Assembly (NCBI GenBank): GCA_034190305.1
Contig: JAXHSV010000001.1
Location: forward strand, 1-56,191
Length of the DNA: 56,191 nt
Direction: 5' to 3'
Source: Planctomycetota bacterium
Lineage (GTDB): Bacteria; Planctomycetota; Phycisphaerae; SM23-33
Under the pieces are notes generated by a model. The model made no database searches. It had not been told where the DNA came from and was given only the letters and a program-made list of their open reading frames with translations. How positions within the stretch are numbered: position 1 is the stretch's first letter; every line of letters begins with the position of its first letter. Of this stretch, positions 1,800-52,766 are shown piece by piece. Position numbers and translations under genes: made by a program.

Positions 1800-2909
1800 A
1801 TGGCAAAGAGCAAAGTAAGTCGCATAGGCGTGTTGACCGGCGGCGGGGACTGCCCGGGCCTGAATGCCGTTATCCGGGCCGTCGCAAAGACCGGGATTTT
1901 CAAGTTCGGCATGGAAATTTTCGGTATCGAGGACGGGTTTCTGGGCTTGATCGAGGGCCGCATCCGCCCGTTGGACGTTTCGGACGTTTCGGGAATTCTG
2001 ACGGTCGGCGGGACGATACTGGGCGCGTCGAACAAGGCCAATCCCTCCCGGTTCAAGGTATTGGAGAACGGAAAGTGGGTCGAGAAGGACGTAACCGACC
2101 GGGTGCTTGAGAACTTCCGGAAGCACAAACTCGACGCCCTGGTCGTAGTCGGTGGCGACGGGACAATGGCCGGCGCCGCCAAACTTGTCGATCGCGGCAT
2201 AAGGATTGTCGGCGTGCCGAAGACGATCGACAACGACCTTCCCGGTACGGAGATAACCTTCGGGCACGACACAGCGGTTGCGACCGGTACGGATGCACTG
2301 GATAAGGTTCACTCCACAGCCTCCAGTCACCACCGCGTGATGGTGGTTGAACTGATGGGGCGATACGCCGGATGGCTTGCGCTGCGGAGCGGGCTTGCCA
2401 GCGGCGCCGACGTAATCCTCATTCCCGAGATACCTTTCAGTCTGGACGTAGTGGCCGAAGCCTGCCGGCGTCGCAGCATGCACGGTAAGCGTTTTACTCT
2501 CATCGCCGCAGGCGAGGGCGCTCACGAGGCGGGAGAAGGCATGATCATCGACCACGTGGATGAGTCCAGCCCCGAGCCGATCCGCCTTGGTGGGGTGGCG
2601 AAGTACGTCGCCGACAAAATCGAAACCCTCACGGGTCTGGAAAGCCGGGCCATCGTGCTGGGGCATGTGCAGCGAGGCGGGACGCCGACCGCATTCGATC
2701 GCATCCTGGCGACCGTACTGGCCCATCACGCCACGGAACTCCTGGCGGCGGGGAGGTTCGGAGAACTTGTCGTCGTCAGGGATGGGAAGATCGATTCTGT
2801 CCCGATAGGTTCCATTGCCGGCAGGATCCGCACGGTCCGGAACGATGATCCGCTGATGCTTGCGGCCAGGGCGGTGGGAACCTGCTTCGGCGATGTTATT
2901 GAGCGTTGA
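1800..2909 (+). CDS. pfkA: ATP-dependent 6-phosphofructokinase
   Basis: IGVLTGGGDCPGLNAVIRAV, VVGGDGTMAG, GVPKTIDNDL and MGRYAGWLAL motifs. An ATG at 1800 is preceded by GGAG; the ORF-track start at 1779 is an upstream TTG. Confidence 0.9.
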   Translation: MAKSKVSRIGVLTGGGDCPGLNAVIRAVAKTGIFKFGMEIFGIEDGFLGLIEGRIRPLDVSDVSGILTVGGTILGASNKANPSRFKVLENGKWVEKDVTDRVLENFRKHKLDALVVVGGDGTMAGAAKLVDRGIRIVGVPKTIDNDLPGTEITFGHDTAVATGTDALDKVHSTASSHHRVMVVELMGRYAGWLALRSGLASGADVILIPEIPFSLDVVAEACRRRSMHGKRFTLIAAGEGAHEAGEGMIIDHVDESSPEPIRLGGVAKYVADKIETLTGLESRAIVLGHVQRGGTPTAFDRILATVLAHHATELLAAGRFGELVVVRDGKIDSVPIGSIAGRIRTVRNDDPLMLAARAVGTCFGDVIER

Positions 2910-2919
2910 TAACCGTCGG

Positions 2920-3966
2920 TTACCATTCTTCCAGCTCGCCGACTATCTCCTCGACGAGGTCCTTGACCGTTACCAGTCCGACGTACTTGCCGGTCTGCGA
3001 GACGACCAGACCCATCACCTCTCGCCGCTGCTGCATTCGCACAAGCGCCTCGATGACTGAAAGATGTTCGCCCAGCGTCAGCGGTTCGGTGATGTGTGCC
3101 GCCGGTGATGCTTCGGGACCATTATCCAGCAGGACGTCGTAAGCGTTAAGAACGCCGACGATGTTGTCCCTGCCGCCGGAATAAACGCCGAATCGAGGAT
3201 GCCCGTGCCGGCGCAGCAGTTCGCGCACTTGCTCGATCGAAGCCGATTCTTCAACGAGCACCGCCTCATCCAGCGGAACCATAACGTCCGGCATTTTGAC
3301 GCGCGAGATATTGACGATGCGTTCGGCTATTGCCGATTGCGTATGCGTCAGCGCACCACCGGCCCGACCTTCGGCGAGAATGCCCGTTACATGCCGGCTG
3401 TGAAAAAACGGCATCTCCTCCTGTGAAGAGGCTCCAAATCGCGAACTTTGCGATTTGGAGTCCTCGCCCCATCGTTGTCCGGCGAGTTTCATTACCATCC
3501 ACATCATTCCGTGAATCATGCCCGCAAGCCCCAGCGCCGAGAATACCCGACGGGAAAAATCCAGAAAAATTGAAAAGGCGTAGGTGAGCGTCTCGGCATG
3601 GCGATGAAAAAGGTTCTTGGGAAGCAGTTCGCAGAAGATGAAGATTACCGGCGTCAGGATCGCCACGGAATACCACTCGGCGTGTAACCATCCTCTGTGG
3701 GTCAATATCACCACCATCCCGGCGGAGGCGAGGTAATTGGCAAAGTTGTTCCCGACAAGCAGGACGACGATTGCTCTTCCGAGGTGGCGATGAATGTCTA
3801 ATAACCTGCGAGCCGACCGGTTTCCGGAGGCCGAGCGAAGGTCCAGGCGAATCTTGTTGACCGCGTAGCATCCCGTCTCCATCCCGCTGTAGAGGAACGA
3901 CAGGACCATTCCTGTCAGCAGCATCGCCCATCCGGCGGCTTGAACAATATATACCGAGGCAATCAT
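2920..3966 (-). CDS. CNNM/hemolysin-family membrane protein (DUF21 + CBS pair, no CorC_HlyC tail)
   Basis: Starts MIASVYIVQAAGWAMLL...GMETGCYAVNKIRL (DUF21), followed by CBS-like segments. The ATG overlaps the stop of the upstream paralog (ATGA at 3963-3966). The longer ORF-track start at 4191 lies inside the upstream gene. Confidence 0.75.
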   Translation of the reverse strand: MIASVYIVQAAGWAMLLTGMVLSFLYSGMETGCYAVNKIRLDLRSASGNRSARRLLDIHRHLGRAIVVLLVGNNFANYLASAGMVVILTHRGWLHAEWYSVAILTPVIFIFCELLPKNLFHRHAETLTYAFSIFLDFSRRVFSALGLAGMIHGMMWMVMKLAGQRWGEDSKSQSSRFGASSQEEMPFFHSRHVTGILAEGRAGGALTHTQSAIAERIVNISRVKMPDVMVPLDEAVLVEESASIEQVRELLRRHGHPRFGVYSGGRDNIVGVLNAYDVLLDNGPEASPAAHITEPLTLGEHLSVIEALVRMQQRREVMGLVVSQTGKYVGLVTVKDLVEEIVGELEEW

Positions 3967-6874: not shown

Positions 6875-7002
6875 AAATTCCATTAATATCCGCAAACTGC
6901 ATAAACAAAAAGAAATATCAAAGGAGAAAAAGTTCGCTCCGTCTTCGGACCATACCATCCTTCCTTGACAAATCATTGTTTCAGCAATACTTTCTCGCGG
7001 AC

Positions 7003-8043
7003 ATGAATACCCAAAGCGATATTTCTGTAGAGCGGGACCAAAGCGGGCGAGTTGTCCGCGTCGTCGGTCCGGGACTGGTGGACCTTCAGATTAACGGATA
7101 CGCAGGGACGAGTTTCAACCATCCGCCGGAGGACATCAACGTCGAAACCCTCCGGCCTGCTTTTGAGAAGATGCGCCGCCGGGGTGTGGTTGCGATTCTG
7201 GCGACTGTTGGAACCGCCCCGATGGATGAAATGCTCGCCGGTATCCGGCGCATCACTTCCTTGCGGAAGCAGGATTCGCTGCTCGCTTCGATGATCGCCG
7301 GTTTCCACATCGAGGGACCCATGATCAGTTCCGAGGACGGCCCGCGCGGGGCTCACGAAGCAGAATACATTATTGCCCCAAACGACGCGCCGGGATTCCT
7401 TGACGACCTCCAGGACGCTTCCGGCGGAACGATTCGCATCTTTACGCTCGCACCGGAACTGCCCGGCGCGATGGAACTTATCGCCAGGGCCGACGCCGCC
7501 GGTATCGTCGTGGCGCTGGGACACCTGAACGCCGACGCCGGGTCAATCGACCGGGCGGTCCGGGCAGGCGCCAAAATGTGCACACACCTGGGCAACGGTT
7601 CGCACGCGATGCTGCCTCGCCTGGATAACTATGTTCAGTATCAACTTGCCGACGACCGTCTTGCAGCCAGTTTCATCGCCGACGGGCATCATGTACCCTT
7701 CCCGACGCTGAAAAACTTTATTCGCGCCAAGACTCCTCAGCGGAGCGTGCTGATAACCGATGCGATCATAGCGGCGGACATGCCGCCGGGATATACCTAC
7801 GGCCACGGCAGGCGGGTTCGCAAGGTCGATCCGGACGGAGCAGTCCGCCTTCCGGGAACGCCCTACCTGGCCGGTTCGGCTCTGACGTTGGATATGGCCG
7901 TTGTGAACACATTCCGGAACTGCGACGTACCATTCGAGACGGCATGGGCAATGGCATCGACCCAACCGGCGGAACTGGTGGGCCTGCCCGTTCCGGAAAT
8001 GGTCCAGGTGGATGTTACCGACAAGGGTTTTACCAGACATTAA
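7003..8043 (+). CDS. N-acetylglucosamine-6-phosphate deacetylase-family amidohydrolase (paralog 1)
   Basis: LVDLQINGYAG (E. coli-type QxN in place of HxH), LAPELPGAMELI, VALGHLNA, CTHLGNGS, IADGHHV and LITDAI. Confidence 0.75.
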   Translation: MNTQSDISVERDQSGRVVRVVGPGLVDLQINGYAGTSFNHPPEDINVETLRPAFEKMRRRGVVAILATVGTAPMDEMLAGIRRITSLRKQDSLLASMIAGFHIEGPMISSEDGPRGAHEAEYIIAPNDAPGFLDDLQDASGGTIRIFTLAPELPGAMELIARADAAGIVVALGHLNADAGSIDRAVRAGAKMCTHLGNGSHAMLPRLDNYVQYQLADDRLAASFIADGHHVPFPTLKNFIRAKTPQRSVLITDAIIAADMPPGYTYGHGRRVRKVDPDGAVRLPGTPYLAGSALTLDMAVVNTFRNCDVPFETAWAMASTQPAELVGLPVPEMVQVDVTDKGFTRH

Positions 8044-8186: not shown

Positions 8187-9227
8187 ATGAATACAGATAA
8201 CGATATTTCGGTAATGCGGGACGAAAACGGACGAATTGTCGGCGCTTCGGGGTCCGGACTGGTGGACCTCCAGGTCAACGGATACGCCGGCGTGGATTTC
8301 AACGATTCGGATGTCGAACGCCTTACCCTTGATAAGGTCAGGGGCGCATTCGAGGCGATGCGGCGCTGCGGCGTGGTGAGCGTACTGGTGACAATCGTTA
8401 CCGGCCCGATAAAGGAGATGATCGCCCGGGTCGCCCGGATGGTCGAGTTGCAAAAGCAGGATGATCTGCTGAAAACAATGATTGCAGGCTTTCACATTGA
8501 AGGTCCGCTTATCAGCGGCGAGGACGGCCCGCGTGGTGCGCATCCCGCCGAAAACGTAATGACGCCGCAGGATACTCCAAACCTGCTGGACGAACTGCAA
8601 TCTGCCGCCGAAGGTGCGGTTCGCCTGCTCACCCTTGCGCCGGAACTGCCCGGCGCGATGGAACTGATCGCCAAGGCCGCTGCCGACGGTATCACCGTGG
8701 CGCTGGGCCATCATAACGCCGACGCCGAGACAATCGACCGGGCGGTCCGGGCCGGCGCTAGGATGTGCACGCATCTGGGAAACGGTTCGCACATGATGCT
8801 CCCCCGGCTGGACAATTACCTCCAGCGACAACTTGCCGACGACCGCCTGTCAGCCAGTTTCATCGCAGACGGACACCACATCCCCTTCACAACGCTGAAG
8901 AACTTCATCCGCGCCAAGACTCCTCGCCGAAGCATACTTGTAACCGATGCTATCATGGCGGCAAACATGCCGCCGGGACAGTATCAGGTCGGAGAAGTTA
9001 CCTGCCGGGTCGAACCGAACGGAATGGTCTGGAAACCGGGAGAAGCATTCCTGGTCGGTTCAGCCCTGACAATGGACCGAGCCGTACTGAACGTCGCCGG
9101 GCGCTGCGACGTATCGTTCGAGACGGCGTGGGCCATGGCATCGACCCAGCCGGCTGAACTGGTGGGCATGCCGAAACCGGCGAGAATCGAAGTGGACGTC
9201 ATCGACAACAACTTCGTCAGAAAATAA
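8187..9227 (+). CDS. N-acetylglucosamine-6-phosphate deacetylase-family amidohydrolase (paralog 2, tandem duplicate)
   Basis: Colinear with the 7003-8043 product over its full length (LVDLQVNGYAG, LAPELPGAMELI, CTHLGNGS, IADGHHIPF, LVTDAI). Confidence 0.75.
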   Translation: MNTDNDISVMRDENGRIVGASGSGLVDLQVNGYAGVDFNDSDVERLTLDKVRGAFEAMRRCGVVSVLVTIVTGPIKEMIARVARMVELQKQDDLLKTMIAGFHIEGPLISGEDGPRGAHPAENVMTPQDTPNLLDELQSAAEGAVRLLTLAPELPGAMELIAKAAADGITVALGHHNADAETIDRAVRAGARMCTHLGNGSHMMLPRLDNYLQRQLADDRLSASFIADGHHIPFTTLKNFIRAKTPRRSILVTDAIMAANMPPGQYQVGEVTCRVEPNGMVWKPGEAFLVGSALTMDRAVLNVAGRCDVSFETAWAMASTQPAELVGMPKPARIEVDVIDNNFVRK

Positions 9228-10525: not shown

Positions 10526-11177
10526 TTACGCCGGCGCGATTCGCGGCATCCTTACCGGTTCGCTCTGCAAAGTGGCCTGGAGAAACTCGTGCAGCAGTTG
10601 GGATTTCAACTCGGTGGCGGATGAGTCGTGTTTTTTCCTCATCCGGCGGCCAGGGCTCGAAATAATCGGACCAGTCGGCCAGGCCCTTCTGTTCCATCCA
10701 TATCGCGTAGTGTTGTCCGACGAGGTATTCGCTGCCGTGCATCCTTGCGGTTTCCAGGTGCTCGAAGCCGTAGAAAGGCCCGTGAAAGTTCCGCCAGAAA
10801 TCCAGGTCGCGGATGAGGGGAAGACATTCGATGGATTAGGCGCCCGGTTGCGACGCCAGAGGCTGGAAATGGGCTTTACCAATAAGCGCCGTGAAATATC
10901 CTGCCTGTTTTAACATGTCGGTGATTCTCGGAACATCCTCGAAAAGTTTCGTTCCGAGCGCCCAGGCGCCGTGCTGTGAGGGATACATTCCGGTGATTAT
11001 GCTGGCCCGCGAAGGCGTGCAGGTCGGATTGGGGCAATAGGCGCGGTCGAACCGCACGCCTTCACTGCAAAGCCGATCCAGCGCCGGTGTCTTAATCCGA
11101 TCATTTACCGACCCCAGCGTGCTGTAATGCTGCTGGTCGGAAGTAATCAGGAGTATATTGGGTCTATTCGACGGCAT
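10526..11177 (-). pseudogene. Cys-type sulfatase remnant (in-frame TAA, internal deletion, frameshift)
   Basis: The N-terminus is MPSNRPNILLITSDQQH...CTPSRASIITG (FGly motif at 11007-11021). A TAA at 10836-10838 is in frame with the continuing homology SIECLPLIRDLDFWRNFHGPFYGFEHLE. The frame changes at the T6 run (10631-10636) into a typical sulfatase C-terminus, ELKSQLLHEFLQATLQSEPVRMPRIAPA. About 217 codons remain, against 450 or more expected. Confidence 0.8.
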
Positions 11178-11226
11178 CTTTTTTTCACCTTTTCTCATCT
11201 CGCGGGCAAGGCGCATCTGCGGCGAT

Positions 11227-13260
11227 TCAGGATCGCAATTCGGCGCCGAGTTGTCCGGCCAGGGCTTCGATAACCTGTCCGACCATCTCATCGACCTGAT
11301 CCGACCGGAGCGTCCCGTCGTCCGAACGATAAGTCAGCGAGACCGTTACGGACTTCTTCCCGCTCTGTATCTGCCTGCCGTGATACGTTCCGACATATCG
11401 AAGCGATTCCCGCATAGGCTGGTCGGTCGAATCTATCGCGCCGGCCAATTCACGCCAGGTAACGGCTTCGTCCACCACGAGCGAAAGGTCGCGTACAACG
11501 GCGGGAAACTTCGGCAGAGGTCCGTAGGTCCGTTCGGCGCCGGCATAGTCCATCAGCATATCGAAATTAATCATCGCTGCGGCGTGGGGCTTCTCCAGGC
11601 CGAAGTAGTCCAGCGCTGCGTCGGCGACCATTCCGATTAATCCGATGCGACGCCCATCGAGATGGATTTCCGCTGCCTGTCCTTCGGAAAGACCAGCCAC
11701 CGGACCGGCGAGAACCTCCAATTTCGCCGCCGGCGCAGATAGGCTTATCACCGCCTCAAGTGCGCCTCGCAGGTCCGAGATATTACGTTGTGTAACCATC
11801 CCAAGGGCGGTGTATTCCTCCGGAAGGTCGCCGGAGTCAGCCGGTCGTTCATCTCGTCTCACGGCAGGCGGGAATACCGCAGCCAATTCATACAGGTTCA
11901 CATCTTCGTTTCCGACGTCCTGATTGGTCTTGCATGCCCGTAGCAACGAGCCGAGCAGCGTGGGGCGGAGCATGTTATTCGTCCGCCGGACGGCGGCATC
12001 GACGTGCAGACCCGTCTGGAAGCCGAAAAGGGCGGCGGCTTCATCGTCGGTGAAAGTGTAGGTAATAGCCTCGTCGAATCCGGCGGCGGACAGGATGTCA
12101 CGGACGCCCTGCCGTAAAGATTCGGACTCACTTGCGCCCGTCACCGGATGCGTTACTTCATTGTGGACGGGTATCTTGTCGTAACCGTGCAGACGGGCAA
12201 CTTCCTCTATAAGGTCGATCTCGCGCCGCAGGTCCGCCCGCCATGCGGGAATCCGGCAGACGATCCTGCCACTTTTGAGTTCGGCTGACAACCCTAGACG
12301 ATTGAGAATTTCAGCCTGCGCCGCATCGTTAACCTCAACGCCCAGCAGCGACCGGCAGCGATCGGTCCGCAGAGTTACTTTCGGCGGTCTGTAAGGATCG
12401 GCCCAAACGTCGATGACGCCGCAGGCAGGTTCACCCCCGGCAGTCTGGAGTAACAACTGGCAGGCGCGTAATGATGCAGTCTCAACCGCGACAGGGTCCA
12501 CACCCCGTTCGAAACGGTAGGACGATTCGCTCATCAGCGACAGGGCGCGGGCGGCTTTGCGAATGGTCAGCGGGTCGAATCGGGCGCTTTCCATGAGGAT
12601 ATCGGTCGTATCGTCGCCGACTTCGCTTTCAAGCCCGCCCATGATACCGGCCACTGCAACGGGCTTGTCGGCGTCGGCGATGACGAGCATTTCTTCGGTC
12701 AGCGTGCAGCGCGTCCCGTCGATACTGACGATCTGCTCGCCGGGCAGGCCCCGGCGAACGATGATTCGCCCGCCGGATAAACGATTCTGGTCGAATGCGT
12801 GCAGCGGCTGACCGAACTCCATCAGGACGTAGTTGGTAACATCGACGACGTTGTTAATCCCCCGCAGGCCGACGGCCTCGAGTCGCTCGACCATCCACGA
12901 CGGCGATGGGCCGACCTTCACGCCGCGGATTATACGCGCGGTGTAGCGAGGACACATGTCAGGGGCAAGCACTTCGACGCTGGTGAGTTTCTCAACGCCC
13001 GTCGATCCGACAGACACAGCCGACAGGTCCGGAAGTTTCAATTCCAGACCCAGCGCCGCAGCCGCTTCCCGCGCCACGCCGATGTGACCCAGACAGTCCG
13101 GGCGATTGGATGTAACCTCCAGGTCAAGAACTATGTCGGTGTCGGTTTCCTCGGCGGACTCGCAGCACAAGCCGATGCGCGTAAAGACATCGGCCAGTTC
13201 GCCCGCCGGCATTGCCGATACGTCAACGTAATCCGTCAGCCAGTTCAGTGATACCTTCAT
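11227..13260 (-). CDS. pheT: Phenylalanine--tRNA ligase beta subunit
   Basis: MKVSLNWLTDYVD start, B3/4, B5 and FDX-ACB-like C-terminal regions, about 677 aa. Confidence 0.9.
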   Translation of the reverse strand: MKVSLNWLTDYVDVSAMPAGELADVFTRIGLCCESAEETDTDIVLDLEVTSNRPDCLGHIGVAREAAAALGLELKLPDLSAVSVGSTGVEKLTSVEVLAPDMCPRYTARIIRGVKVGPSPSWMVERLEAVGLRGINNVVDVTNYVLMEFGQPLHAFDQNRLSGGRIIVRRGLPGEQIVSIDGTRCTLTEEMLVIADADKPVAVAGIMGGLESEVGDDTTDILMESARFDPLTIRKAARALSLMSESSYRFERGVDPVAVETASLRACQLLLQTAGGEPACGVIDVWADPYRPPKVTLRTDRCRSLLGVEVNDAAQAEILNRLGLSAELKSGRIVCRIPAWRADLRREIDLIEEVARLHGYDKIPVHNEVTHPVTGASESESLRQGVRDILSAAGFDEAITYTFTDDEAAALFGFQTGLHVDAAVRRTNNMLRPTLLGSLLRACKTNQDVGNEDVNLYELAAVFPPAVRRDERPADSGDLPEEYTALGMVTQRNISDLRGALEAVISLSAPAAKLEVLAGPVAGLSEGQAAEIHLDGRRIGLIGMVADAALDYFGLEKPHAAAMINFDMLMDYAGAERTYGPLPKFPAVVRDLSLVVDEAVTWRELAGAIDSTDQPMRESLRYVGTYHGRQIQSGKKSVTVSLTYRSDDGTLRSDQVDEMVGQVIEALAGQLGAELRS

Positions 13261-13986: not shown

Positions 13987-14793
13987 TTGACAAAAACTGT
14001 TTTTGCGGGTCTATTATTGCGACGAGAAAGGAGTTTCACCATCAATCAAACAGCACCGATAGACGCTGAAAAACCGTGTCCACGATGCAAGATGTCCAAC
14101 GCTCCGGACACCGAGTTCTGCGCCCACTGCGGCCTGCGGATGGGCCGGCACAAACCGGTGGCATGGTGGCATATCCACAGGAGACTCTATGACTGGACGG
14201 TGGGTTGGACGTATCGCCCGTCGTCGTCGGTTGCGCTGTTTGCGTTGAGTTTTTCCGAGAGCATAATTTTCCCCGTCCCCCCGGACGTTCTGCTGATACC
14301 GTTAGTATTGGGCAACCGCCGCAAGTGGCTGAAATACGCCGCTCTGTGCAGCATCGCCAGCGTAGCCGGCGCAGTGGCTGCCTTTCTTATAGGCTGGCTG
14401 GCGTGGTGGGCCGTCAAGGATTTCGCCTTCGAGTATCTGGGATGGACCGGATTGGCAGAGGACAACTTCGACACCATCTCGCTGTGGTTCGAACGGTGGA
14501 ATTTCTGGATTATTTTTGCAGCCGGTTTTACACCCCTTCCCTTCAAGGTGTTCAACATCTTCGCCGGCGTATTCGGCACCGGGCCTGAGGTGTCCAGCCC
14601 GGTAATTTTCTTCGTCCTTTTCCTTACAGCCGCCACCGTCAGCCGGACCGCAAGGTTCTTTCTGGTCGCAGGCCTGATGCGGGCCTTCGGTGCGAAGATG
14701 ACGCCGTTCATCGAGAAATATTTCAACTGGCTGTCGATAGCCTTTGCAGCCCTGCTTATCGGCGGGTTTGTAGTGGCGAAATACGCCTTTTGA
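13987..14793 (+). CDS. YqaA/DedA-like (VTT/SNARE-associated domain) membrane protein with an N-terminal zinc ribbon
   Basis: CPRCKMSNAPDTEFCAHCG zinc ribbon, then FSESIIFPVPPDVLLIPL typical of YqaA-type proteins. The start codon is uncertain (TTG at 13987). Confidence 0.65.
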   Translation: MTKTVFAGLLLRRERSFTINQTAPIDAEKPCPRCKMSNAPDTEFCAHCGLRMGRHKPVAWWHIHRRLYDWTVGWTYRPSSSVALFALSFSESIIFPVPPDVLLIPLVLGNRRKWLKYAALCSIASVAGAVAAFLIGWLAWWAVKDFAFEYLGWTGLAEDNFDTISLWFERWNFWIIFAAGFTPLPFKVFNIFAGVFGTGPEVSSPVIFFVLFLTAATVSRTARFFLVAGLMRAFGAKMTPFIEKYFNWLSIAFAALLIGGFVVAKYAF

Positions 14794-14804
14794 GTAAAAT
14801 GCGG
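14771..14804 (+). repeat. Direct repeat copy 1: functional 3' end of the YqaA-like gene (VVAKYAF-stop plus 11 nt)
   Basis: TAGTGGCGAAATACGCCTTTTGAGTAAAATGCGG, repeated at 15807-15841. Confidence 0.8.
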
Positions 14805-14936
14805 ATTAGACATCGATGGCGGAGGGATTTGTTACGAAATGCCTTATGGAAAAATCTCACGGTTTGAGAGAATATTATCTTGCGTTGACGAAAAAAAGAT
14901 GTACACTAAAGATGTCCAACTTAGCGGAGGCCGGTA

Positions 14937-15173
14937 ATGAAGGCTCTTAGTGTAAAAGAAATACGAACGCGCCTGAGCAAGGTAATTCACGAGGCCGAAT
15001 GCGGCGAATCGACCACAATCACCCGCTATGGGAAACCGGTGGCTCGAATTGTCCCGGCCGATACTCATCGCCCCGCTTTTCCGGACCTGTCGGAATTCCG
15101 CGCTTCGATCAAACCTCGCGGCAAGACCCTGACCGACACGCTCCGTGAAATGCGCGAGGAGGAACGGCTTTGA
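14937..15173 (+). CDS. Phd/YefM-family antitoxin
   Basis: MKALSVKEIRTRLSKVIHEAECGESTTITRYGKPVARIVP. GGAGG RBS. 4-nt overlap with the downstream PIN gene. Confidence 0.85.
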   Translation: MKALSVKEIRTRLSKVIHEAECGESTTITRYGKPVARIVPADTHRPAFPDLSEFRASIKPRGKTLTDTLREMREEERL

Positions 15174-15589
15174 GGGCGTATGTCGACACCAGTATATTAA
15201 CCGGAGCGTACTGCGCCGAGCCGGGCAGCGCACGCTCGCAGAAAGTGTTGCAGCGTTACATGCCTGTAATCTCCCGCCTGACGTGCCTGGAGTTCAGTTC
15301 CTCGGTGGCTAGGAAACTTCGCATGAAAACCTTCTCAAAAACCGAGGCGCTCAGGGTGATTCACCAGTTTCATTCTCACCTCCAACAGGACATCTTCGAA
15401 CTCAAGCCGGTTCAGGACATGCACCTGGTATTGGCCGGCGAATGGATCGACTTGTTTGCGACCGGACTGCGCCCGTTGGATGCAATGCACCTCGCGATTG
15501 CCCATTCCAATAAACTGCTACTGGTTACAGCCGACGTATCGCTTGCCAAGTCGGCCCGGCAACTCGGCGCAGCAGTGGAACGAATCTGA
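15170..15589 (+). CDS. vapC: VapC-type PIN-domain toxin
   Basis: YVDTSIL (first acidic residue), LDAMHLAIA and LVTADVSLAKSA. TTG start overlapping the antitoxin stop. Confidence 0.8.
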   Translation: MRAYVDTSILTGAYCAEPGSARSQKVLQRYMPVISRLTCLEFSSSVARKLRMKTFSKTEALRVIHQFHSHLQQDIFELKPVQDMHLVLAGEWIDLFATGLRPLDAMHLAIAHSNKLLLVTADVSLAKSARQLGAAVERI

Positions 15590-15687
15590 TCCGTCGTAGT
15601 AAAAAAATTGAGGTCTTTCCGGTCGGTGGGTTCGTAATAGTCTGTCAATCTTAAATCTGTGAACAAAATCTTCAGACGTCGGTTTTT

Positions 15688-15769
15688 CGACACAGAGACA
15701 CAGAGGAACAGAGACATAAAAACAGATTTGTCTTTTTTCTATTCTCTGAATCTCTGCGTCTCTGTGTCG
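15688..15769. repeat. Palindromic element, CAGAGA family (copy A1)
   Basis: Arms CGACACAGAGACACAGAGGAACAGAGA and TCTCTGAATCTCTGCGTCTCTGTGTCG around an AT-rich loop. Confidence 0.85.
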
Positions 15770-15806
15770 CATAATCCTGCTGACAAATTTGAAGTTAACG
15801 GAGTAA

Positions 15807-15841
15807 TAGTAGCCAAATATGCCTTTTGAGTAAAGTGCAGG
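15807..15841 (+). repeat. Direct repeat copy 2: orphan 3' end of the YqaA-like gene (VIVAKYAF-stop)
   Basis: TAGTAGCCAAATATGCCTTTTGAGTAAAGTGCAGG. Differs from copy 1 mostly at third codon positions. Confidence 0.8.
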
Positions 15842-15867: not shown

Positions 15868-17616
15868 TCACGACAGGCCGTTCGGCGATTTTTCTTCCTC
15901 GCCTTCGCTTTTCGGTTTTTCCTGCATGGGGTACTTCAGACGGACGTGGTACATTCCACAGAGGCTTTTGACCAGCGACGTTTCGATGGCGTGGACCTCC
16001 CGCAGCGTCAATTCGCAGTCGTCCAGTTGCCCGTCCATAAGGCGCTTGGAAATCACGAAGTGGACCTGCGTTTCGATTCGCCCGGCGGTTGGTTCCGGTG
16101 TGGCGCGGATGGATGATTCAGCCGCGTCGGCGAGCATGAGAATGGCTGCCTCTTTCATTCGCGGCTTGGGACCCGGATAGCGGAACTCGACTTCATCGGG
16201 CGCACTTTCGCCGTTATCGGCTCGCTGCTCGGCTGCGGCGTGGTAGAAATACTCCACCAGCGTCGTACCGTGGTGCGTGGCGATGAATTCCCGAAGTACC
16301 CTTGGCAGACCATACTGCCTGGCCATTTCAACGCCGTCCTTGACGTGTCCCTTGATTACCAGCAGGCTCATTGCCGGCGAAAGTTTCTCGTGGCGCGAGG
16401 CGGAACCGGCCTGGTTCTCCACGAAATAATCGGGCTTGTTGATTTTTCCGACATCGTGGTAGTAGGCGCCGACCCTCGCCAGCAGACCCCGAGCGCCAAT
16501 GGCCTCGGCGGCGGATTCGCACATCGCCCCCAGCACGAGCGAGTGATTATACGTCCCCGGCGCTTCCAGCGCCAGGCGCTTCAGCAGCGGTTTGTTGGCG
16601 TCGCACCATTCCAGCAGCGTCAGCGATGTGGCGACGGAGAATACCCGTTCAATCAGAGGCAGAATGCCCTGTGTGAGGAACCCGCCGGCGATAGCTGCCC
16701 CTGCGGCATAACAGCCGTCCACGAGAACAAATCGCCCCGGCATGCCGGCGGCGGATTCAACCAGCCAGACGGTAATGAACACCACCACCGCAACCACGCC
16801 GCCGGTCTCGATGAGTTTGCTTCGAGTCCGAACCTCGTGCAACTGGAAAACGATCGTCGCCGCGGCCGACCAGAGCACCAACAGTCCCCCCACTCCCAGA
16901 CGAACCTGCAAGGCCGTCAGGATCACCAGCGCACCGGTAACCGCGAAGGCGAAACGCTGGTCGTAGGCGATGGCGAGCATGGTGGCGGCTACGAATATCC
17001 CGAAAACCGACAGGTACGGATTCATGCTTCCTGCGCCGACGACCACCCGACTCAACAACAGCACCAGAAAGATCAGCATCACAATGGCCAGGCCCCGCCA
17101 GTGGTTCTTCACGATCCGCGGGCTGTACTTGGCGACATATAACCCCAGCATGGCAACGACGCCGGCGATAATTCCCGCCCTGCCAAGGAATATCCAGAAC
17201 CGCCTTAGGGGCGAATCGGCGTTTCGCTGTTGCAGGAATGCCACGTGTTCAGCAGACAGGATTGCCACCTGTGCCTCTTTCAGTCCACCGTCGGCGGTCC
17301 CGGTTACAAGGAGTCTTCCTTTAGGGATGCTCTGTCCGACCGGCTGGGTCGCAGGAATTGTGGTCGGTCTTTCAGCATCGGCAAAGTGGAATTCAACACG
17401 GGCGTATGCGTCACGGGGAAGGTATCCGCCGAGGCGGTAGGGCGCAGGCTCCAGCGGGCAGGCGTCCATTATCAGCGCCGCGACAAACAGACCCGTCGCC
17501 AATAAGACCGACCCGACACCGCCGGCGTCGCGGAACCGCTGCCATCGGCCGGGTCCGGCCGGGGCGATCTTGCGAATCTCCCGCCGCTGACGATTTTTCT
17601 TCTTAAAAGGCCACAT
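15868..17616 (-). CDS. pgpH: 7TM-HD membrane phosphohydrolase (PgpH/YqfF family, c-di-AMP phosphodiesterase-like)
   Basis: Multi-TM central region, then an HD domain (GAYYHDVGK, ATHHGTTL). Lies downstream of phoH, as in many bacteria. Confidence 0.8.
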   Translation of the reverse strand: MWPFKKKNRQRREIRKIAPAGPGRWQRFRDAGGVGSVLLATGLFVAALIMDACPLEPAPYRLGGYLPRDAYARVEFHFADAERPTTIPATQPVGQSIPKGRLLVTGTADGGLKEAQVAILSAEHVAFLQQRNADSPLRRFWIFLGRAGIIAGVVAMLGLYVAKYSPRIVKNHWRGLAIVMLIFLVLLLSRVVVGAGSMNPYLSVFGIFVAATMLAIAYDQRFAFAVTGALVILTALQVRLGVGGLLVLWSAAATIVFQLHEVRTRSKLIETGGVVAVVVFITVWLVESAAGMPGRFVLVDGCYAAGAAIAGGFLTQGILPLIERVFSVATSLTLLEWCDANKPLLKRLALEAPGTYNHSLVLGAMCESAAEAIGARGLLARVGAYYHDVGKINKPDYFVENQAGSASRHEKLSPAMSLLVIKGHVKDGVEMARQYGLPRVLREFIATHHGTTLVEYFYHAAAEQRADNGESAPDEVEFRYPGPKPRMKEAAILMLADAAESSIRATPEPTAGRIETQVHFVISKRLMDGQLDDCELTLREVHAIETSLVKSLCGMYHVRLKYPMQEKPKSEGEEEKSPNGLS

Positions 17617-22609: not shown

Positions 22610-24304
22610 ATGCCCATTCGCGGACTAGGCTTCCTGAGCCGGCAATATCGCCACATCAACCGATACCGTCAGATCGTATCTGTCCTGCTGAAGCACGGAT
22701 TCGGGGACCTGATGGGGACTCTGGGTCTGCATCGGCGCCTCGGCATGGACAAGCGCCGCGCAGACCGGCCCGAAGCGATTGTCACACAGACACTGACGCG
22801 GTGGCAGCGCGTGCGAATGGCAATGGAGGAACTCGGCCCGTCCTTCGTCAAGTTGGGGCAGATCGCTGCAACCCGTCCTGACATGATCCCGCAGGAACTG
22901 TGCAGCGAACTGGAAAAACTTCAGGATACGGTTCCACCCTTCGGCTTCAGCCAGGTCGGACAAACAGTAAAGGCCGAACTCGGCGATTCGCTCGAAGCGC
23001 TGTTCGAGCGGTTCGATCAAAAGCCCGTAGCGTCCGCATCCATCGCCCAGGTTCACCGCGCTGTCCTTCCCGGCGGCGAAGTGGTGGCTGTTAAAGTCCA
23101 GCGTCCCGAAATAGACCGGACAATTGCGGTTGACCTGGAGATTATGCTCGATCTGGCCGCTCTTATGGAAAAGCACATTCACGGACTCGATGCGGTAAAT
23201 CCGGTCGGGATAGTTCAGGAATTCGCTCGCACGATTCGCAAGGAACTGGACTTTACAATCGAGGCCGATCATATCGAGCGTTTCGCCCGGAATTTTAAAT
23301 CGAACGATAACGTGCACGTCCCGCGGGTCTTCCGTCGTTACTCGACCAGAAAAGTCCTGACGATGGAGTTTGTCGAGGGGGTTAAGGTTTCGGACCTTCC
23401 GGCTTTGCGCGAGGGCGGTTTTGACCTGGAGTTAATCGCCGGCAGAGGCGCCGATCTCGTCCTCGAACAGATATTCGTGCACGGGTTCTTTCACGCTGAT
23501 CCGCATCCGGGCAACATCCTCATCCTGCCCGACAACGTTATCTGCTTCCTCGATTACGGCATGATGGGGACCGTGAAGCCTCGCTACCGCCAAAGCCTCG
23601 CCGATCTGGTTGTAGGAATCGTCCGCCGCGACGAGAGCCAAATAACAAAGGCGGTTCTGAGTCTTTCGGAGAACGACAATCCCGAGACATACGAGAGGCT
23701 CGAAGCGGACGTGGACGATTTCATCGAGCAGCACTTTTATCGTCCGCTAAAGGACATCCACATGGGAAGCCTCATATCGCAGCTGGTTCAAATTCTGGTG
23801 CGCCACCGGTTAAGGATTATCCCGGATTTCTACCTTCTCACCAAGGCGTTGGCTATCGCCGAGGGAAACGGGCGCAAACTCTGGCCTGATTTCGATATGA
23901 TCAAAAATACCGAGCCGTTCGCCAGGAAAATCATGACTGAACGCCTCAGCCCCCGAACACTTGCGAAAGACCTTTATCGCTCCGGTATCGATATGGGAAA
24001 CCTTATGCGGGACCTGCCCGGCGACGTGAAGGAAATACTCGCCCAGATAAAGCGGGGGCGAATTCACGTCGAGTTCGAACACAGGGGTTTGGAACCGATG
24101 CTCAAGACGCACGACCAGATAAGCAACCGCATAGTATTCGCCATCGTCCTGGCGGCCATTGTTATCGCCTCGTCGGTTATTGTTCTTTCGGGTATTCCGC
24201 CGAAATGGTACGGCATTCCGGTCCTTGGAATTGTCGGATACCTCGCTGCCGGTGCGATGGGCTTCTGGCTGCTGATTTCAATCATCAGGCACGGGAAGAT
24301 GTGA
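22610..24304 (+). CDS. ABC1/UbiB-family atypical kinase
   Basis: LGPSFVKLGQIAATRPDMIP, ASIAQVHRA, VAVKVQRP, FFHADPHPGNI, and two C-terminal TM helices. Confidence 0.85.
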   Translation: MPIRGLGFLSRQYRHINRYRQIVSVLLKHGFGDLMGTLGLHRRLGMDKRRADRPEAIVTQTLTRWQRVRMAMEELGPSFVKLGQIAATRPDMIPQELCSELEKLQDTVPPFGFSQVGQTVKAELGDSLEALFERFDQKPVASASIAQVHRAVLPGGEVVAVKVQRPEIDRTIAVDLEIMLDLAALMEKHIHGLDAVNPVGIVQEFARTIRKELDFTIEADHIERFARNFKSNDNVHVPRVFRRYSTRKVLTMEFVEGVKVSDLPALREGGFDLELIAGRGADLVLEQIFVHGFFHADPHPGNILILPDNVICFLDYGMMGTVKPRYRQSLADLVVGIVRRDESQITKAVLSLSENDNPETYERLEADVDDFIEQHFYRPLKDIHMGSLISQLVQILVRHRLRIIPDFYLLTKALAIAEGNGRKLWPDFDMIKNTEPFARKIMTERLSPRTLAKDLYRSGIDMGNLMRDLPGDVKEILAQIKRGRIHVEFEHRGLEPMLKTHDQISNRIVFAIVLAAIVIASSVIVLSGIPPKWYGIPVLGIVGYLAAGAMGFWLLISIIRHGKM

Positions 24305-24307
24305 GCG
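24272..24307 (+). repeat. Direct repeat copy 1: functional 3' end of the ABC1-kinase gene (LISIIRHGKM-stop)
   Basis: CTGATTTCAATCATCAGGCACGGGAAGATGTGAGCG, repeated at 24876-24911 with one mismatch. Confidence 0.9.
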
Positions 24308-24429
24308 GGCCGACACCGGGCGCACTAGCCCTGCACAGGTCTTGTTTTACCCAATCGGTCGGTTTATCATAATAAAGAACAGTCGGTTAGCAGGGAAGCA
24401 ACAGTGGCTGTGGGGCAAGGAGTTTGGTG

Positions 24430-24642
24430 ATGGGATATCATATACCTGTATTGATTGAGCAGGATGAAGACGACGTTTTTATCGTTTCGGCGCCGACGCT
24501 TCGCGGCTGCCACAGTTACGGAGATACACTTGAAGAGGCCATGAAAAACATCGCTGAAGCGGTGATGCTTTGCCTGCAGGATGAAGTCCCTGATCAAAAC
24601 CGGCGGTTTGTCGGCGTGCGCGACCTGGAGGTAACGGTGTGA
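24430..24642 (+). CDS. hicB: HicB-family antitoxin
   Basis: YHIPVLIEQDEDDVFIVSAPTLRGCHSYGDTLEEAMKNIAEAV (UPF0150/HicB N-domain). AAGGAG RBS. Confidence 0.8.
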   Translation: MGYHIPVLIEQDEDDVFIVSAPTLRGCHSYGDTLEEAMKNIAEAVMLCLQDEVPDQNRRFVGVRDLEVTV

Positions 24643-24866
24643 CGACCGTGCCGGTCATCCCAGCACGCAGGCTTATCCGGGTCTTGGCCAAGTTGGGCTT
24701 CGAGGAAATTCGCTGTCGCGGCTCTCATCATCGGTTTGCTCATCCGGATGGTCGAAAAACTACTGTGCCGGTTCATCAGGGGCGGGAAATTCCCCGCGGG
24801 CTGCTGCGAAAAATTGTTACTGTCGATCTGGGCATGGATATGAAAGAATTTGTTTCGATGCTGTAG
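24639..24866 (+). CDS. hicA: HicA-family mRNA interferase toxin
   Basis: ARRLIRVLAKLGFEEIRCRGSHHRFAHPDGRKTTVPVHQGREIPRGLLRKI. GTGA start/stop overlap with hicB. Confidence 0.85.
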   Translation: MTTVPVIPARRLIRVLAKLGFEEIRCRGSHHRFAHPDGRKTTVPVHQGREIPRGLLRKIVTVDLGMDMKEFVSML

Positions 24867-24875
24867 GTGTTTCTT

Positions 24876-24911
24876 CTGATTTCAATTATCAGGCACGGGA
24901 AGATGTGAGCG
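24876..24911 (+). repeat. Direct repeat copy 2: orphan 3' end of the ABC1-kinase gene
   Basis: CTGATTTCAATTATCAGGCACGGGAAGATGTGAGCG. Begins 10 nt after the hicA stop and still reads LISIIRHGKM-stop. Confidence 0.9.
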
Positions 24912-24929
24912 AACCGGCTGCCGAGGCGA

Positions 24930-25649
24930 TTACATCATCGCTACGACGACATTGTAGCAGGCATGAGCGCCGACGGCGACACCGAAGCCGCGACCGATAT
25001 AGACTATCGCCAGGTAGGCCCCGGCAATTCCGCGAAACACAAACAGGCGCCAGTCGAAATCGGCTGGGCCTATGAAATGATATAAACTGAACAGCACCGA
25101 AGCGGAAACGACGGCCACCACTGCGGTGGGCTTCCTGGCTGCCTTCAGCAGGTCCACAAAAAGCAGCATAATCAGGCCGATAGCCGCCAGGCGGAAGATG
25201 AACTCCTCGTATATTCCCGCCCCTATTCCCGTGAGTATTTCAGCGGCCAGTGCCTGGTCCCCCGCCCCGGCTGCCAGAGCCTCAGGAGCAATCAGCCTGT
25301 CGGTCAGAAACGCCAGGGCGACCAGCGGCGCCATCCCGACGACGCTTTCGGCAAACATTCCCGCTACGGCGTCGGCATCGACGTGCCGCTTTTCCCGGCT
25401 GGCGATGTGCCATGCCAGAAGGACGACGACAATCAACGCCGCCGGAAGAAACCTCGCCGCGGCCCCGAGACTATTGAGCACAACAGCAAGATGCCGAGGA
25501 GCCAGCAGGCAATCGCTGTAAAAAATGGACCCGACCTCATAGGCCACAAGGAGAGGAAGAATGAACATCAGGCAGTTGAGCGGGCGATGGGTCCGCCTCA
25601 GGTATTCCGACGCGGCTTTACTGAATCGGCTTTTTTTCTTCGAAGCCAT
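24930..25649 (-). CDS. CPBP-family intramembrane metalloprotease (CAAX protease-like)
   Basis: EEFIFRLAAIG, SVLFSLYHF and HACYNVVV motifs. Start taken at MASKKK, because the longer N-terminus runs into a repeat element. Confidence 0.75.
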   Translation of the reverse strand: MASKKKSRFSKAASEYLRRTHRPLNCLMFILPLLVAYEVGSIFYSDCLLAPRHLAVVLNSLGAAARFLPAALIVVVLLAWHIASREKRHVDADAVAGMFAESVVGMAPLVALAFLTDRLIAPEALAAGAGDQALAAEILTGIGAGIYEEFIFRLAAIGLIMLLFVDLLKAARKPTAVVAVVSASVLFSLYHFIGPADFDWRLFVFRGIAGAYLAIVYIGRGFGVAVGAHACYNVVVAMM

Positions 25650-25671
25650 ACCGGCAAACTGACATACAAGA

Positions 25672-25787
25672 GGCCACAGAGACGCAGAGAGCGCAGAGAT
25701 TAACAAGACAAAAGAAACAAAATAACGCAGGGATTTTTGATTCTATCTAACTTATTTGTTCTCTGCGCTCTCTGTGCCTCTGCGGCC
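25672..25787. repeat. Palindromic element, CAGAGA family (copy A2)
   Basis: Arms GGCCACAGAGACGCAGAGAGCGCAGAGA and TCTCTGCGCTCTCTGTGCCTCTGCGGCC. Confidence 0.85.
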
Positions 25788-25800
25788 TATTTTCCCAAAC

Positions 25801-27740: not shown

Positions 27741-27850
27741 GCCGCAGAGGCACAGAGAGCGCAGAGATGTAAAAAATTAGAGAAAAAATAAGAAACGAAA
27801 GTCTTTTTTTGATTCTATTTATTCTCTGCGTCCTCTGCGTCTCTGCGGCC
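27741..27850. repeat. Palindromic element, CAGAGA family (copy A3), in the tsf-pyrH spacer
   Basis: Arms GCCGCAGAGGCACAGAGAGCGCAGAGA and TCTCTGCGTCCTCTGCGTCTCTGCGGC. Confidence 0.85.
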
Positions 27851-31004: not shown

Positions 31005-31039
31005 TATTTTGTCAACATTGAATTCGTGAGTAAAGGATT

Positions 31040-31110
31040 GCGACACAGAAACGCAGAGGGACAAAGATAAAAAGAAATAAATCTTTTCTTTTCTCTGCGT
31101 CTCTGTGTCG
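31040..31110. repeat. Palindromic element, CAGAGA family (copy A4), inside the groES-groEL spacer
   Basis: Arms GCGACACAGAAACGCAGAGGGACAAAGA and TCTCTGCGTCTCTGTGTCG. Confidence 0.8.
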
Positions 31111-31167
31111 AAAAAAAATGTCCGAAATCACTATATCGATTCTGAAGATTAGACAGGAGCAGTAAAA

Positions 31168-51789: not shown

Positions 51790-52766
51790 ATGCGAACCCG
51801 CACCTTTCGCTATAAGAATCTATAAGAATCTATAAGAATCTATAAGAATCCTATCTACAGCCTCGCAATCGACGCCATCCGAGACTGCCAGATTACCGAA
51901 GTTGACGGCGTGTACTACCTGACAGGAACCAGCCCGCCCGTCTGGGGGGAAGGGCCGAACCCGGGAGTCAAATTGTACTCCTCGCCGGACCTGCTGAACT
52001 GGAAGTTTGAGACGTTCCTTACAGACCGGGCCGGACTGGACCCGGGCGTGTGGTATTACGACCGGTTCTGGGCGCCGGAAATCCACCGCAAGGATGGGCG
52101 GTTCTGGCTGACGTTCAACTGCCGCAACGAAACCGCCGAAATACCATACCCTCATTCGTCCGGCCTGGCGGTGGCAGATAGCATCACCGGTCCTTACGAA
52201 ATACTCACGCACGACAAGCCCCTGATTGACCGAACGAACGATGCAACCCTGTTCGCGGACGATGACGGAAGGACATACATCTACGTTACCGGCATCATAG
52301 GCTGGGAGATGAACCTGGAGGCGTGCAGGCTGATTGACGGGCCTTTTTAAAGTCGCCGGGGCGCTGGGACGGCATCGGCATAGAAGGCCCGTTTGTAATC
52401 AAGCGGGACGGCATGTATTACATGTTCTATTCCTCGTGGACGCGGGGATATGAAGTCGGCTATGCGACCGCGTCTCACCCCAAAGGCCCCTGGAAAAAGT
52501 ACGAAGGAAACCCGATATTCGGGGCGCAGAACAGAAAAACCTGTGCAGGATACGGCGGACGGTTCACGGGGAACCCCCCCGGCTGCCCGTACGCCGCAGC
52601 CGGGCACAACGCAATATTCACCGGTCCGGACGGACGAGGCTGGATCGTCTGCCACTACCAGGAAACAGACAAGCCCGATTCCCTCGGCTTCGACCCGATA
52701 TGGATCGAAGACGGCGTCATCAAAACCAACGGCCCGACCTGGACCGAACAGACAATCGAAATTTGA
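51790..52766 (+). pseudogene. GH43-family glycoside hydrolase, disrupted by a 10-bp x4 tandem repeat (in-frame TAA) and a frameshift near 52344-52351
   Basis: ATG at 51790 (MRTRTFRYKN) is in the same frame as NPIYSLAIDAIRDCQITEVDGVYYLTG, but TAA at 51823-51825 lies inside the repeat. The second half (FLKSPGRWDGIGIEGPFVIKRDGMYYMFYSSW...) resumes in the -1 frame at a T5A3 run. Confidence 0.8.
51810..51849 (+). repeat. Perfect tandem repeat (CTATAAGAAT) x4
   Basis: Read directly from the sequence. The unit equals codons 8-10 of the GH43 ORF. Confidence 0.95.

Follow-up and report, generated by a model that had tools for sequence, protein, structure and literature searches.

How a two-gene toxin-antitoxin operon came to lie between two copies of the end of an unrelated housekeeping gene is the question raised by the hicBA locus described here. 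The locus belongs to an uncultured Planctomycetota bacterium represented by a metagenome-assembled genome (MAG; GCA_034190305.1), and the DNA analysed, referred to below as the window, is the whole 56,191-nt stretch that makes up its entire NCBI contig JAXHSV010000001.1. Chromosomal toxin-antitoxin modules are plainly mobile, usually without transposition machinery, and the way in which they move has long been unclear. In the window, genes for a predicted HicB antitoxin and a predicted HicA toxin follow a gene for an ABC1/UbiB-type atypical kinase, the last codons of which recur behind hicA (Table 1). Comparison with related genomes leaves us highly confident that the operon was inserted with a target duplication of ~46 bp and with no dedicated recombinase, whatever the mechanism. 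The empty site of a relative and the occupied site of the window form a clean before/after pair in which both junctions can be read at base resolution.

The hicBA cassette and its empty site

The kinase open reading frame (ORF) reads ...LISIIRHGKM before its stop codon, and its last 12 codons plus stop are part of the first repeat copy. The 36-nt core of the repeat (CTGATTTCAATCATCAGGCACGGGAAGATGTGAGCG; 24272-24307) recurs at 24876-24911 with 35 of its 36 positions identical, the second core beginning at the 10th nt past the hicA stop codon. The single mismatch is ATC/ATT, which specifies isoleucine in both copies, and the codon just before the core differs synonymously as well (CTG in copy 1, CTT in copy 2). 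Ungapped extension lengthens the repeat to 44 nt with 91% identity (24269-24312 and 24873-24916). The block between the copies holds hicB and hicA only, as both the ORF list and the Pfam search indicate. Except for the 44-nt extension and the Pfam matches, these features had been picked out in an earlier sequence-only reading of the window, which also identified the repeat with the kinase gene end; they stand at the positions just given, and the ORF that carries the PF03109 match does end within copy 1. The two ways in which that reading thought the repeat could prove trivial, a dispersed element and an assembly artefact, have both been checked. A search of the window with the 36-mer, allowing up to 3 mismatches, returned two matches while 100 shuffled sequences returned none, so that the 36-mer is not a dispersed element within the window; in relatives the sequence was found at kinase gene ends only. 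An artefact of assembly is unlikely, because a second assembler produced, for run SRR24907504, a Logan contig that covers both copies and agrees with the window over 7,097 bp (100% identity). When the kinase, HicA and Rce1-like proteins were looked up by exact sequence, the only hit each time was this Logan contig, and no empty or excised allele was seen.

Relatives were collected by a scan with the kinase protein, one genome per species (fetched loci are designated by L numbers). Orthologues with 76-85% amino acid identity were found in cold-seep Planctomycetales/Planctomycetaceae MAGs. One of these, the Planctomycetaceae MAG L004, carries a cassette-free allele, as the sequence-only reading had predicted: the stop codons of the kinase gene and of rce1 are separated by ~24 nt with nothing between. 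Window positions 24200-24314 align to L004 2060-2174, and positions 24873-24998 align collinearly to L004 2129-2254, running from the kinase end through the spacer into the end of rce1. In the three-way alignment, copy 1 matches L004 leftward and its similarity ends 10 nt past the stop codon; copy 2 has hicA on its left and tracks L004 rightward through the spacer into rce1. The stretch common to both copies is L004 2129-2174, that is 46 nt comprising the last 12 codons, the stop codon and ~10 nt of spacer. Since both copies map to this one stretch, the hicBA operon was inserted with a target duplication of ~46 bp; the 36 nt proposed at first hold for the core and understate the full duplicated segment. 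The alignment with L004 shows that the original gene end has been displaced and is now the downstream copy, where it remains joined to its old spacer and to rce1, that the upstream copy now ends the working kinase gene, and that the kinase gene and the convergent Rce1-like gene formerly lay ~20 nt apart. The stop codon of the Rce1-like gene is reached 21 nt past copy 2 in the window and gene order in the relatives makes it the neighbour that the kinase gene originally had downstream.

The sequence of the copies also bears on the age of the event. An Ile codon is present in both window copies (ATC) at a position where L003, L004, L005, L006, L007 and L101 have the Leu codon CTC and L010 has the Leu codon CTT. 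As this derived codon is common to the two copies, the duplication is younger than the split from L003, the closest relative found. At the ATC/ATT mismatch, copy 2 has the same ATT as L003, which fits copy 2 as the resident allele. Most differences between the copies polarise to the non-functional copy 2 when outgroups are compared.

The insert proper (approximately 24315-24872) is ~558 bp long. Its GC content of 52.9% lies within one standard deviation of the window value (56.0%) and is uninformative on a foreign origin. A 26-nt filler, for which no match was found in any fetched locus, precedes a promoter-like site with two candidate pairs of boxes, TTGTTT-17-TATCAT (24342-24370) or TTTACC-16-CATAAT (24346-24373), and a ribosome-binding site (AAGGAG, 24417-24422) lies upstream from hicB. 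The hicA gene starts with GTG and overlaps the hicB stop by 4 nt. HicA has a GSHH motif, read from the sequence, that takes in the position of the family's conserved catalytic His. The pair shares with the HicAB type II toxin-antitoxin family Pfam matches above the gathering scores, overlapping adjacent genes, an own promoter-like site and structure matches. It differs from that family in its HicB, a short form of 70 aa (the same length is called in the Logan contig) that consists of the N-terminal domain only and lacks the C-terminal DNA-binding domain. The hicA reading frame continues in repeat copy 2. If the TAG codon of hicA were read through (24864-24908), VFLLISIIRHGKM, the hydrophobic C-terminal peptide of the kinase, would be appended, followed by TGA; the shared frame is probably a coincidence, with a chance of 1 in 3.

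No integrase or transposase domain was found among the ~40 ORFs screened across the 56-kb window, which are housekeeping ORFs, in agreement with the absence of an integrase remarked on earlier. No terminal inverted repeats were found at the ends of 24315-24872, and the joint between GTGTTT and CTTCTG shows ambiguous microhomology only. Since neither a recombinase nor terminal repeats nor fixed ends were found, we infer that host recombination made the structure.

Table 1. Features of the hicBA and phd/vapC loci in the window.
Feature	Position	Strand	Evidence or remark
ABC1/UbiB-type atypical kinase gene, 564 aa	22610-24304	+	ORF; Pfam PF03109, 1.9e-82, ABC1 domain full-length
Repeat copy 1: functional kinase end + ~10 nt ancestral spacer	24269-24314	+	alignment to L004; core 24272-24307
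Left junction filler, 26 nt	24315-24340	+	no homology to empty site or other cassette copies
Cassette's own promoter + 5' leader	24341-24429	+	promoter-like site; homology to L101 and L005 cassettes starts at 24341
hicB antitoxin gene, 70 aa, predicted	24430-24642	+	PF15919, 7e-12, 46 bits (cut-off 27); matches structures 6G1C/6G1N
hicA toxin gene, 75 aa, predicted	24639-24866	+	PF07927, 7e-20, 71.4 bits (cut-off 27); matches 1WHZ, 6G26, 4C26
Right junction GTGTTT, 6 nt between hicA stop and copy 2	24867-24872	+	
Repeat copy 2: displaced ancestral kinase end (...LLISIIRHGKM*) + first 10 nt of spacer	24873-24918	+	core 24876-24911
Ancestral intergenic spacer between convergent kinase and Rce1-like genes	24909-24929	.	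21/27 nt identical to L004 spacer
Rce1-like CAAX protease-family gene, convergent	24930-25706	-	PF02517, 3e-11; next to kinase gene in L004, syntenic in L003, L007
DedA/YqaA-family membrane protein gene, end duplicated	13987-14793	+	named 'DedA family protein' in a source
Repeat copy 1: functional DedA end + 9 nt	14771-14802	+	weaker similarity to about 14765-14822
phd	14937-15173	+	PF02604, 7e-9
vapC	15170-15589	+	PF01850, 5e-12
Repeat copy 2: displaced DedA end	15807-15838	+	28/32 identical to copy 1
7TM-HD gene, convergent	15868-17616	-	stop 30 nt beyond repeat copy 2

Gene-end repeats and cassettes at other loci

The layout is found at both toxin-antitoxin loci of the window. At the second, a phd/vapC locus 9 kb from hicBA, a duplicated end of a DedA/YqaA-family gene brackets the operon, as the sequence-only reading had noted (Table 1). 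No empty site was found for phd/vapC: the closest relative, L103 (DedA 86% identical in amino acids), is occupied, and the more distant L104-L106 differ in synteny. L103 shares the left junction of the insertion, its phd gene is decayed and vapC is absent; an insertion common to the window and L103 must be old. The decay is seen at L103 1576-1812, where the phd start codon has changed from ATG to ATA, an in-frame stop is present and unrelated DNA takes the place of vapC; it is a case of toxin-antitoxin decay at a shared insertion. Copy 2 of the window has GGA and TAT like the functional end of L103, at positions where the functional window copy has GGG and TAC. Some of the differences between the copies are therefore synonymous changes that took place in the functional copy after duplication.

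In all fetched loci together, 823 gene ends were scanned for a downstream copy, with a reversed-sequence null that never scored above 15. The scan returned four toxin-antitoxin cases (hicBA and phd/vapC of the window, L003 and the ANME-1 locus L070), one lipoprotein case and one tandem duplication. In L003, an insert of ~940 bp between the kinase gene and rce1 carries a minus-strand HicB-like gene and a decayed hicA. The duplicated piece is here the end of rce1, with the functional copy at 3279-3304 and a remnant at 2312-2337 (22/26 identical) that abuts the kinase stop codon. In the same insert (2338-3278), hicA is interrupted by a hairpin with a 22-bp stem. A Methanophagales/ANME-1 MAG (L070) has a direct repeat of ~200 nt with 88% identity (11134-11334 and 11952-12151) that corresponds to the 3' end of a glyoxalase/Zn-ribbon gene and encloses a ~620-nt insert with a 52-aa ORF and a CopG-type (BrnA-like) antitoxin gene, the frame of which continues into the remnant copy to give a fusion protein. 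Going by its sequence, the ANME-1 locus probably represents the same architecture in an archaeon; the sequence of the orthologous locus, L011, ends before the site. The lipoprotein case is a Bacteroidota MAG (L076) with a 57-nt repeat (56/57; 11503-11558 and 12470-12523) within the 3' coding region of a cation/H+ exchanger gene. Its cargo is not a toxin-antitoxin pair but a gene for a 219-aa lipoprotein-like protein, and the functional copy of the exchanger gene ends with an insert-encoded SNQ*, the ancestral end being MSEIKL*. The tandem duplication lies behind a restriction-modification gene in L005.

Repeat lengths across the cases are 26, ~46, ~49, 57 and ~200 nt, and no common core was found among the kinase, DedA and rce1 repeats. 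In 4/4 toxin-antitoxin cases, the gene whose end was duplicated lies upstream and is co-oriented, an outcome with a chance of 1/16 if orientation is random and thus suggestive only. Over the kinase, DedA and rce1 loci, 7 of 8 mismatches fall at third codon positions. A constrained copy next to a decaying remnant also predicts a third-position excess, for which reason this count is not used as proof of coding evolution in both copies; the synonymous-only mismatches are too few to prove it.

Relatives of the window HicA with 80-92% amino acid identity were found in no fewer than four settings: downstream of the kinase gene (L101/L100), between a peptidyl-prolyl isomerase gene and frr (L096, L098), in L102, and before a deaminase gene (L108). 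The L101/L100 cassette is of the window family (88% nt identity) and lies directly behind the kinase gene, where L005 has a partial copy. Its left junction is about 105 nt long compared to the 26-nt filler of the window, its divergence from the window cassette is similar to that of the flanking genes, and the L101 kinase end, 83% identical to that of the window, is closest to L007 (93%). In L101 and L005, homology to the window cassette reaches as far upstream as the -35 box, whereas in L108, L096 and L098 it begins only at the ribosome-binding site; its right limit is the hicA stop codon in every case. Around the hicBA relatives L083, L084, L085, L088, L094, L096, L098 and L102, no repeats above the shuffled background were found, and an 18-nt perfect repeat lies near the relative in L089 (score 18, shuffle maximum 12).

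The interval between the kinase gene and rce1 is variable. In L005 (1979-6750) it contains two hic pairs, one of them hicAB on the minus strand and the other hicBA, as well as a truncated hicB of the window type and a restriction-modification gene of Eco57I/MmeI type, and in L007 (1745-2623) a legume-lectin/PEP-CTERM gene. On these gene contents, the interval is a hypervariable insertion hotspot in the clade. Distant hicBA relatives (49% amino acid identity) were also seen in two metagenome contigs of the Joint Genome Institute (L091 715-3349; L092 646-1481), within an array of small cassettes that includes a PIN-domain fragment. Five copies of a ~80-nt repeat (TGTCGCCGTACC...AAGTCAACAA) separate these cassettes, and the array looks like a chromosomal integron-type cassette array.

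Known systems and the route of insertion

Insertion with long target duplication has been described for restriction-modification gene complexes (Nobusato et al. 2000, Gene 259:99; Furuta, Abe & Kobayashi 2010, PMC2853133; PMC3874152). Members of the class are defined by a target that is single-copy in the empty site, a duplication of >30 bp, an insert of <20 kb, no mobility genes in or beside it and a repeat that is not dispersed (PMC2853133); a Haemophilus influenzae example has 46-bp repeats over gene 3' ends and no mobility genes (PMC2853133). The window locus has in common with the class a small addiction-type unit without a mobility gene, repeats of >30 bp on a single-copy empty site, the frequent overlap of the repeats with the 3' end of a neighbouring gene, and variable repeat lengths. 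It differs in its cargo, which is HicB/HicA (and VapC at the second locus) and not restriction-modification, a requirement that stems from what the published screen covered and is not a mechanistic one, as well as in its host, an uncultured Planctomycetota in which 2/2 toxin-antitoxin loci of the window are affected. As far as its sequence tells, the hicBA case structurally belongs to this rare style of insertion, known mainly from restriction-modification genes. A description of the architecture for toxin-antitoxin cargo was not found in the literature searched, the coverage of which is incomplete. The case extends the class from restriction-modification to RNase-type toxin-antitoxin cargo. 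DNA breakage by the cargo has been suggested to promote such insertions (PMC2853133, Discussion). HicA and VapC belong to RNase families and are not DNA endonucleases, so that cargo-driven breakage cannot apply here, and the extension argues for a mechanism of host recombination or repair, not of DNA cleavage by the cargo.

Other systems resemble the locus in part. Displaced 3' ends in type VI secretion system (T6SS) effector-immunity, Rhs and contact-dependent inhibition (CDI) loci have been attributed to homology-facilitated illegitimate recombination (Kirchberger et al. 2017, PMC5361080). Entry downstream of a conserved homologous anchor, an old 3' end pushed on as a remnant and the lack of an integrase are shared. 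However, their displaced ends are distinct toxin tips with immunity genes, which diversify the gene itself, whereas the displaced end of the window is no longer than 12 codons and encodes an unchanged peptide, its host gene having an unrelated housekeeping role. Integrase islands and cis-mobilisable elements at the 3' ends of genes or tRNA genes likewise leave the gene intact and are flanked by direct repeats of its 3' end, but the window locus has no integrase, no common core or fixed ends, and an insert of only 0.56 kb. Integron toxin-antitoxin cassettes, of which L091/L092 are a probable example, are also promoter-proximal minimal units between direct repeats; the window repeats, in contrast, are two-copy and derived from the local gene, with no repeat family between successive cassettes.

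Several identities were tried and rejected for the element. An insertion sequence, a transposon or a miniature inverted-repeat transposable element was rejected from the lack of terminal inverted repeats and from a duplication of ~46 bp where a short one (up to ~10 bp) is expected. An integron cassette with attC was rejected because there are just two repeats, each a copy of the local gene end, unlike in L091/L092, and a dif-like or transposon-end identity on the basis of sequence and repeat scans.

As to the route, we tentatively favour one-ended homologous plus illegitimate recombination from a related chromosome, which is nearly tied with a de novo staggered duplication. DNA would have entered from a close relative whose chromosome already had hicBA in place behind its kinase gene. 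The left side would have recombined homologously inside the kinase gene, and the right side would have joined illegitimately 36 nt upstream of the resident stop codon (homology-facilitated illegitimate recombination); a circle integrating via short homology would give an equal product. The resident gene end would have been pushed downstream instead of being replaced. Such a route explains the presence of one cassette family at one locus in different lineages and the co-oriented upstream ends, and it has a parallel in the displaced 3' ends of T6SS and Rhs loci (PMC5361080). Direct repeats of 36-46 nt would make the insert prone to deletion, and a toxin-antitoxin pair would penalise its own loss. 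We infer that addictive cargo would resist repeat-mediated deletion, a possible reason for finding such repeats next to restriction-modification and toxin-antitoxin genes. The link between repeats and addiction could then be one of survivorship, only loss-punishing cargo being retained.

A number of points weigh against this one-ended route. A donor allele was not identified, nor was a donor-type tract found in the kinase gene, where sliding nucleotide identity to L003-L006 shows no shift towards another lineage at the 3' end. The 35/36 identity of the copies is equally well explained by simple duplication of one resident sequence. In experiments, homology-facilitated illegitimate recombination reportedly proceeds mainly with deletion, not duplication, in the recipient, and natural competence is not known for this lineage. 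Around the related cassettes of L096, L098, L101, L102 and L108, no gene-end repeat was found. Addiction by the window HicA/HicB pair, finally, is assumed from their membership of the family.

De novo insertion with long target duplication, where one resident sequence was duplicated and the copies diverged later, is quite possible although we hold it with some doubt. Both repeats lie on a target that is single-copy in the empty site and are >30 bp long, the insert is small and free of mobility genes, and repeat length varies among cases as in the published class. It also accommodates the near identity of the copies together with their common lineage-specific Ile codon, the polarisation of most differences to non-functional copy 2, and the GGA/TAT of phd/vapC copy 2, which are expected to match the L103 functional end if the two copies began identical. 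The price is two illegitimate joins. Moreover, the presence of one cassette family behind one kinase gene in another sublineage, with different junctions, stays unexplained unless the site is break-prone, and the co-orientation of the upstream gene in all four toxin-antitoxin cases speaks against it to the suggestive extent given above. An old insertion that preceded the split between the window and L101, was later lost or rearranged elsewhere, and whose copies were homogenised by gene conversion or selection is decidedly unlikely. A locus shared by the cassettes of the window, L101 and L005, the 88% nt identity of the cassette next to 83% for the kinase end, and the age of the phd/vapC insertion common to the window and L103 are in its favour, but the left junctions of the window and L101 differ in length, the cassette is absent from L003, the closest relative, and the L004 spacer is intact; the 35/36 identity and the derived Ile would in addition need conversion between 36-nt tracts.

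Elements moved by a tyrosine recombinase typically integrate into the 3' end of a gene and restore its reading frame. The repeats could accordingly be the attL and attR sites of a miniature element that brings a replacement gene end and is moved, as a cis-mobilisable element would be, by an integrase from another part of the genome, of which 56 kb are visible. We consider this very unlikely: there is no recombinase in the insert or in the window, the three repeat pairs have no common core and each would need its own recombinase, and the limits of cassette homology differ among contexts. Furthermore, copy 1 similarity ends 10 nt past the stop codon and is followed by unrelated filler before the promoter, and most related cassettes have no flanking repeat. 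An assembly chimera of cassette-bearing and cassette-free strains is extremely improbable. Related strains do coexist in samples that yield a MAG such as this one, but two assemblers gave the same 7.1 kb across both copies, a de Bruijn join from the hicA end to kinase codon -12 needs a shared k-mer that only a real repeat supplies, and the architecture recurs at the second locus and in other MAGs.

Beyond the single event, minimal toxin-antitoxin operons of sediment Planctomycetota, and perhaps of ANME-1, might be autonomous integrase-free mobile units that insert at gene 3' ends while duplicating a long target, loop out through the repeats as one-repeat circles and, in other cells, re-enter the same gene end by Campbell-type recombination, a scheme we regard as rather unlikely. 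If true, it would correspond to the 'virus-like life cycle' proposed by Kobayashi's group for restriction-modification genes, with a cargo unable to cut DNA, and addiction, not DNA breakage, would be the common driver. For metagenomes, displaced gene-end remnants offer a cheap sequence signature of recent cassette insertion.

Other features of the window

An intergenic palindromic family with CAGAGA/CTCTGCGTCTCTGTG motifs and arms of up to 44 nt occurs at 15683-15774, 25673-25790, 27741-27850 and 31039-31115 (10 motif hits, 1.2 expected). The phd/vapC insert contains one of the copies, on the downstream side of vapC, and a similar motif is present in L007. The copies look like repetitive extragenic palindromic (REP)-like elements or bidirectional terminators. 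Two tandem paralogous ORFs (6976-8043, 355 aa; 8187-9227, 346 aa) have 70-75% nt identity over most of their length and no Pfam match. Two short ORFs are possible gene fragments or pseudogenes: one of 151 aa (10836-11291) matches the N-terminal third of a sulfatase domain, and one of 146 aa (51910-52350) matches part of glycoside hydrolase family 43. Just downstream of the inosine monophosphate (IMP) dehydrogenase gene, positions 51810-51849 form a perfect tandem repeat of four 10-nt units (CTATAAGAAT).

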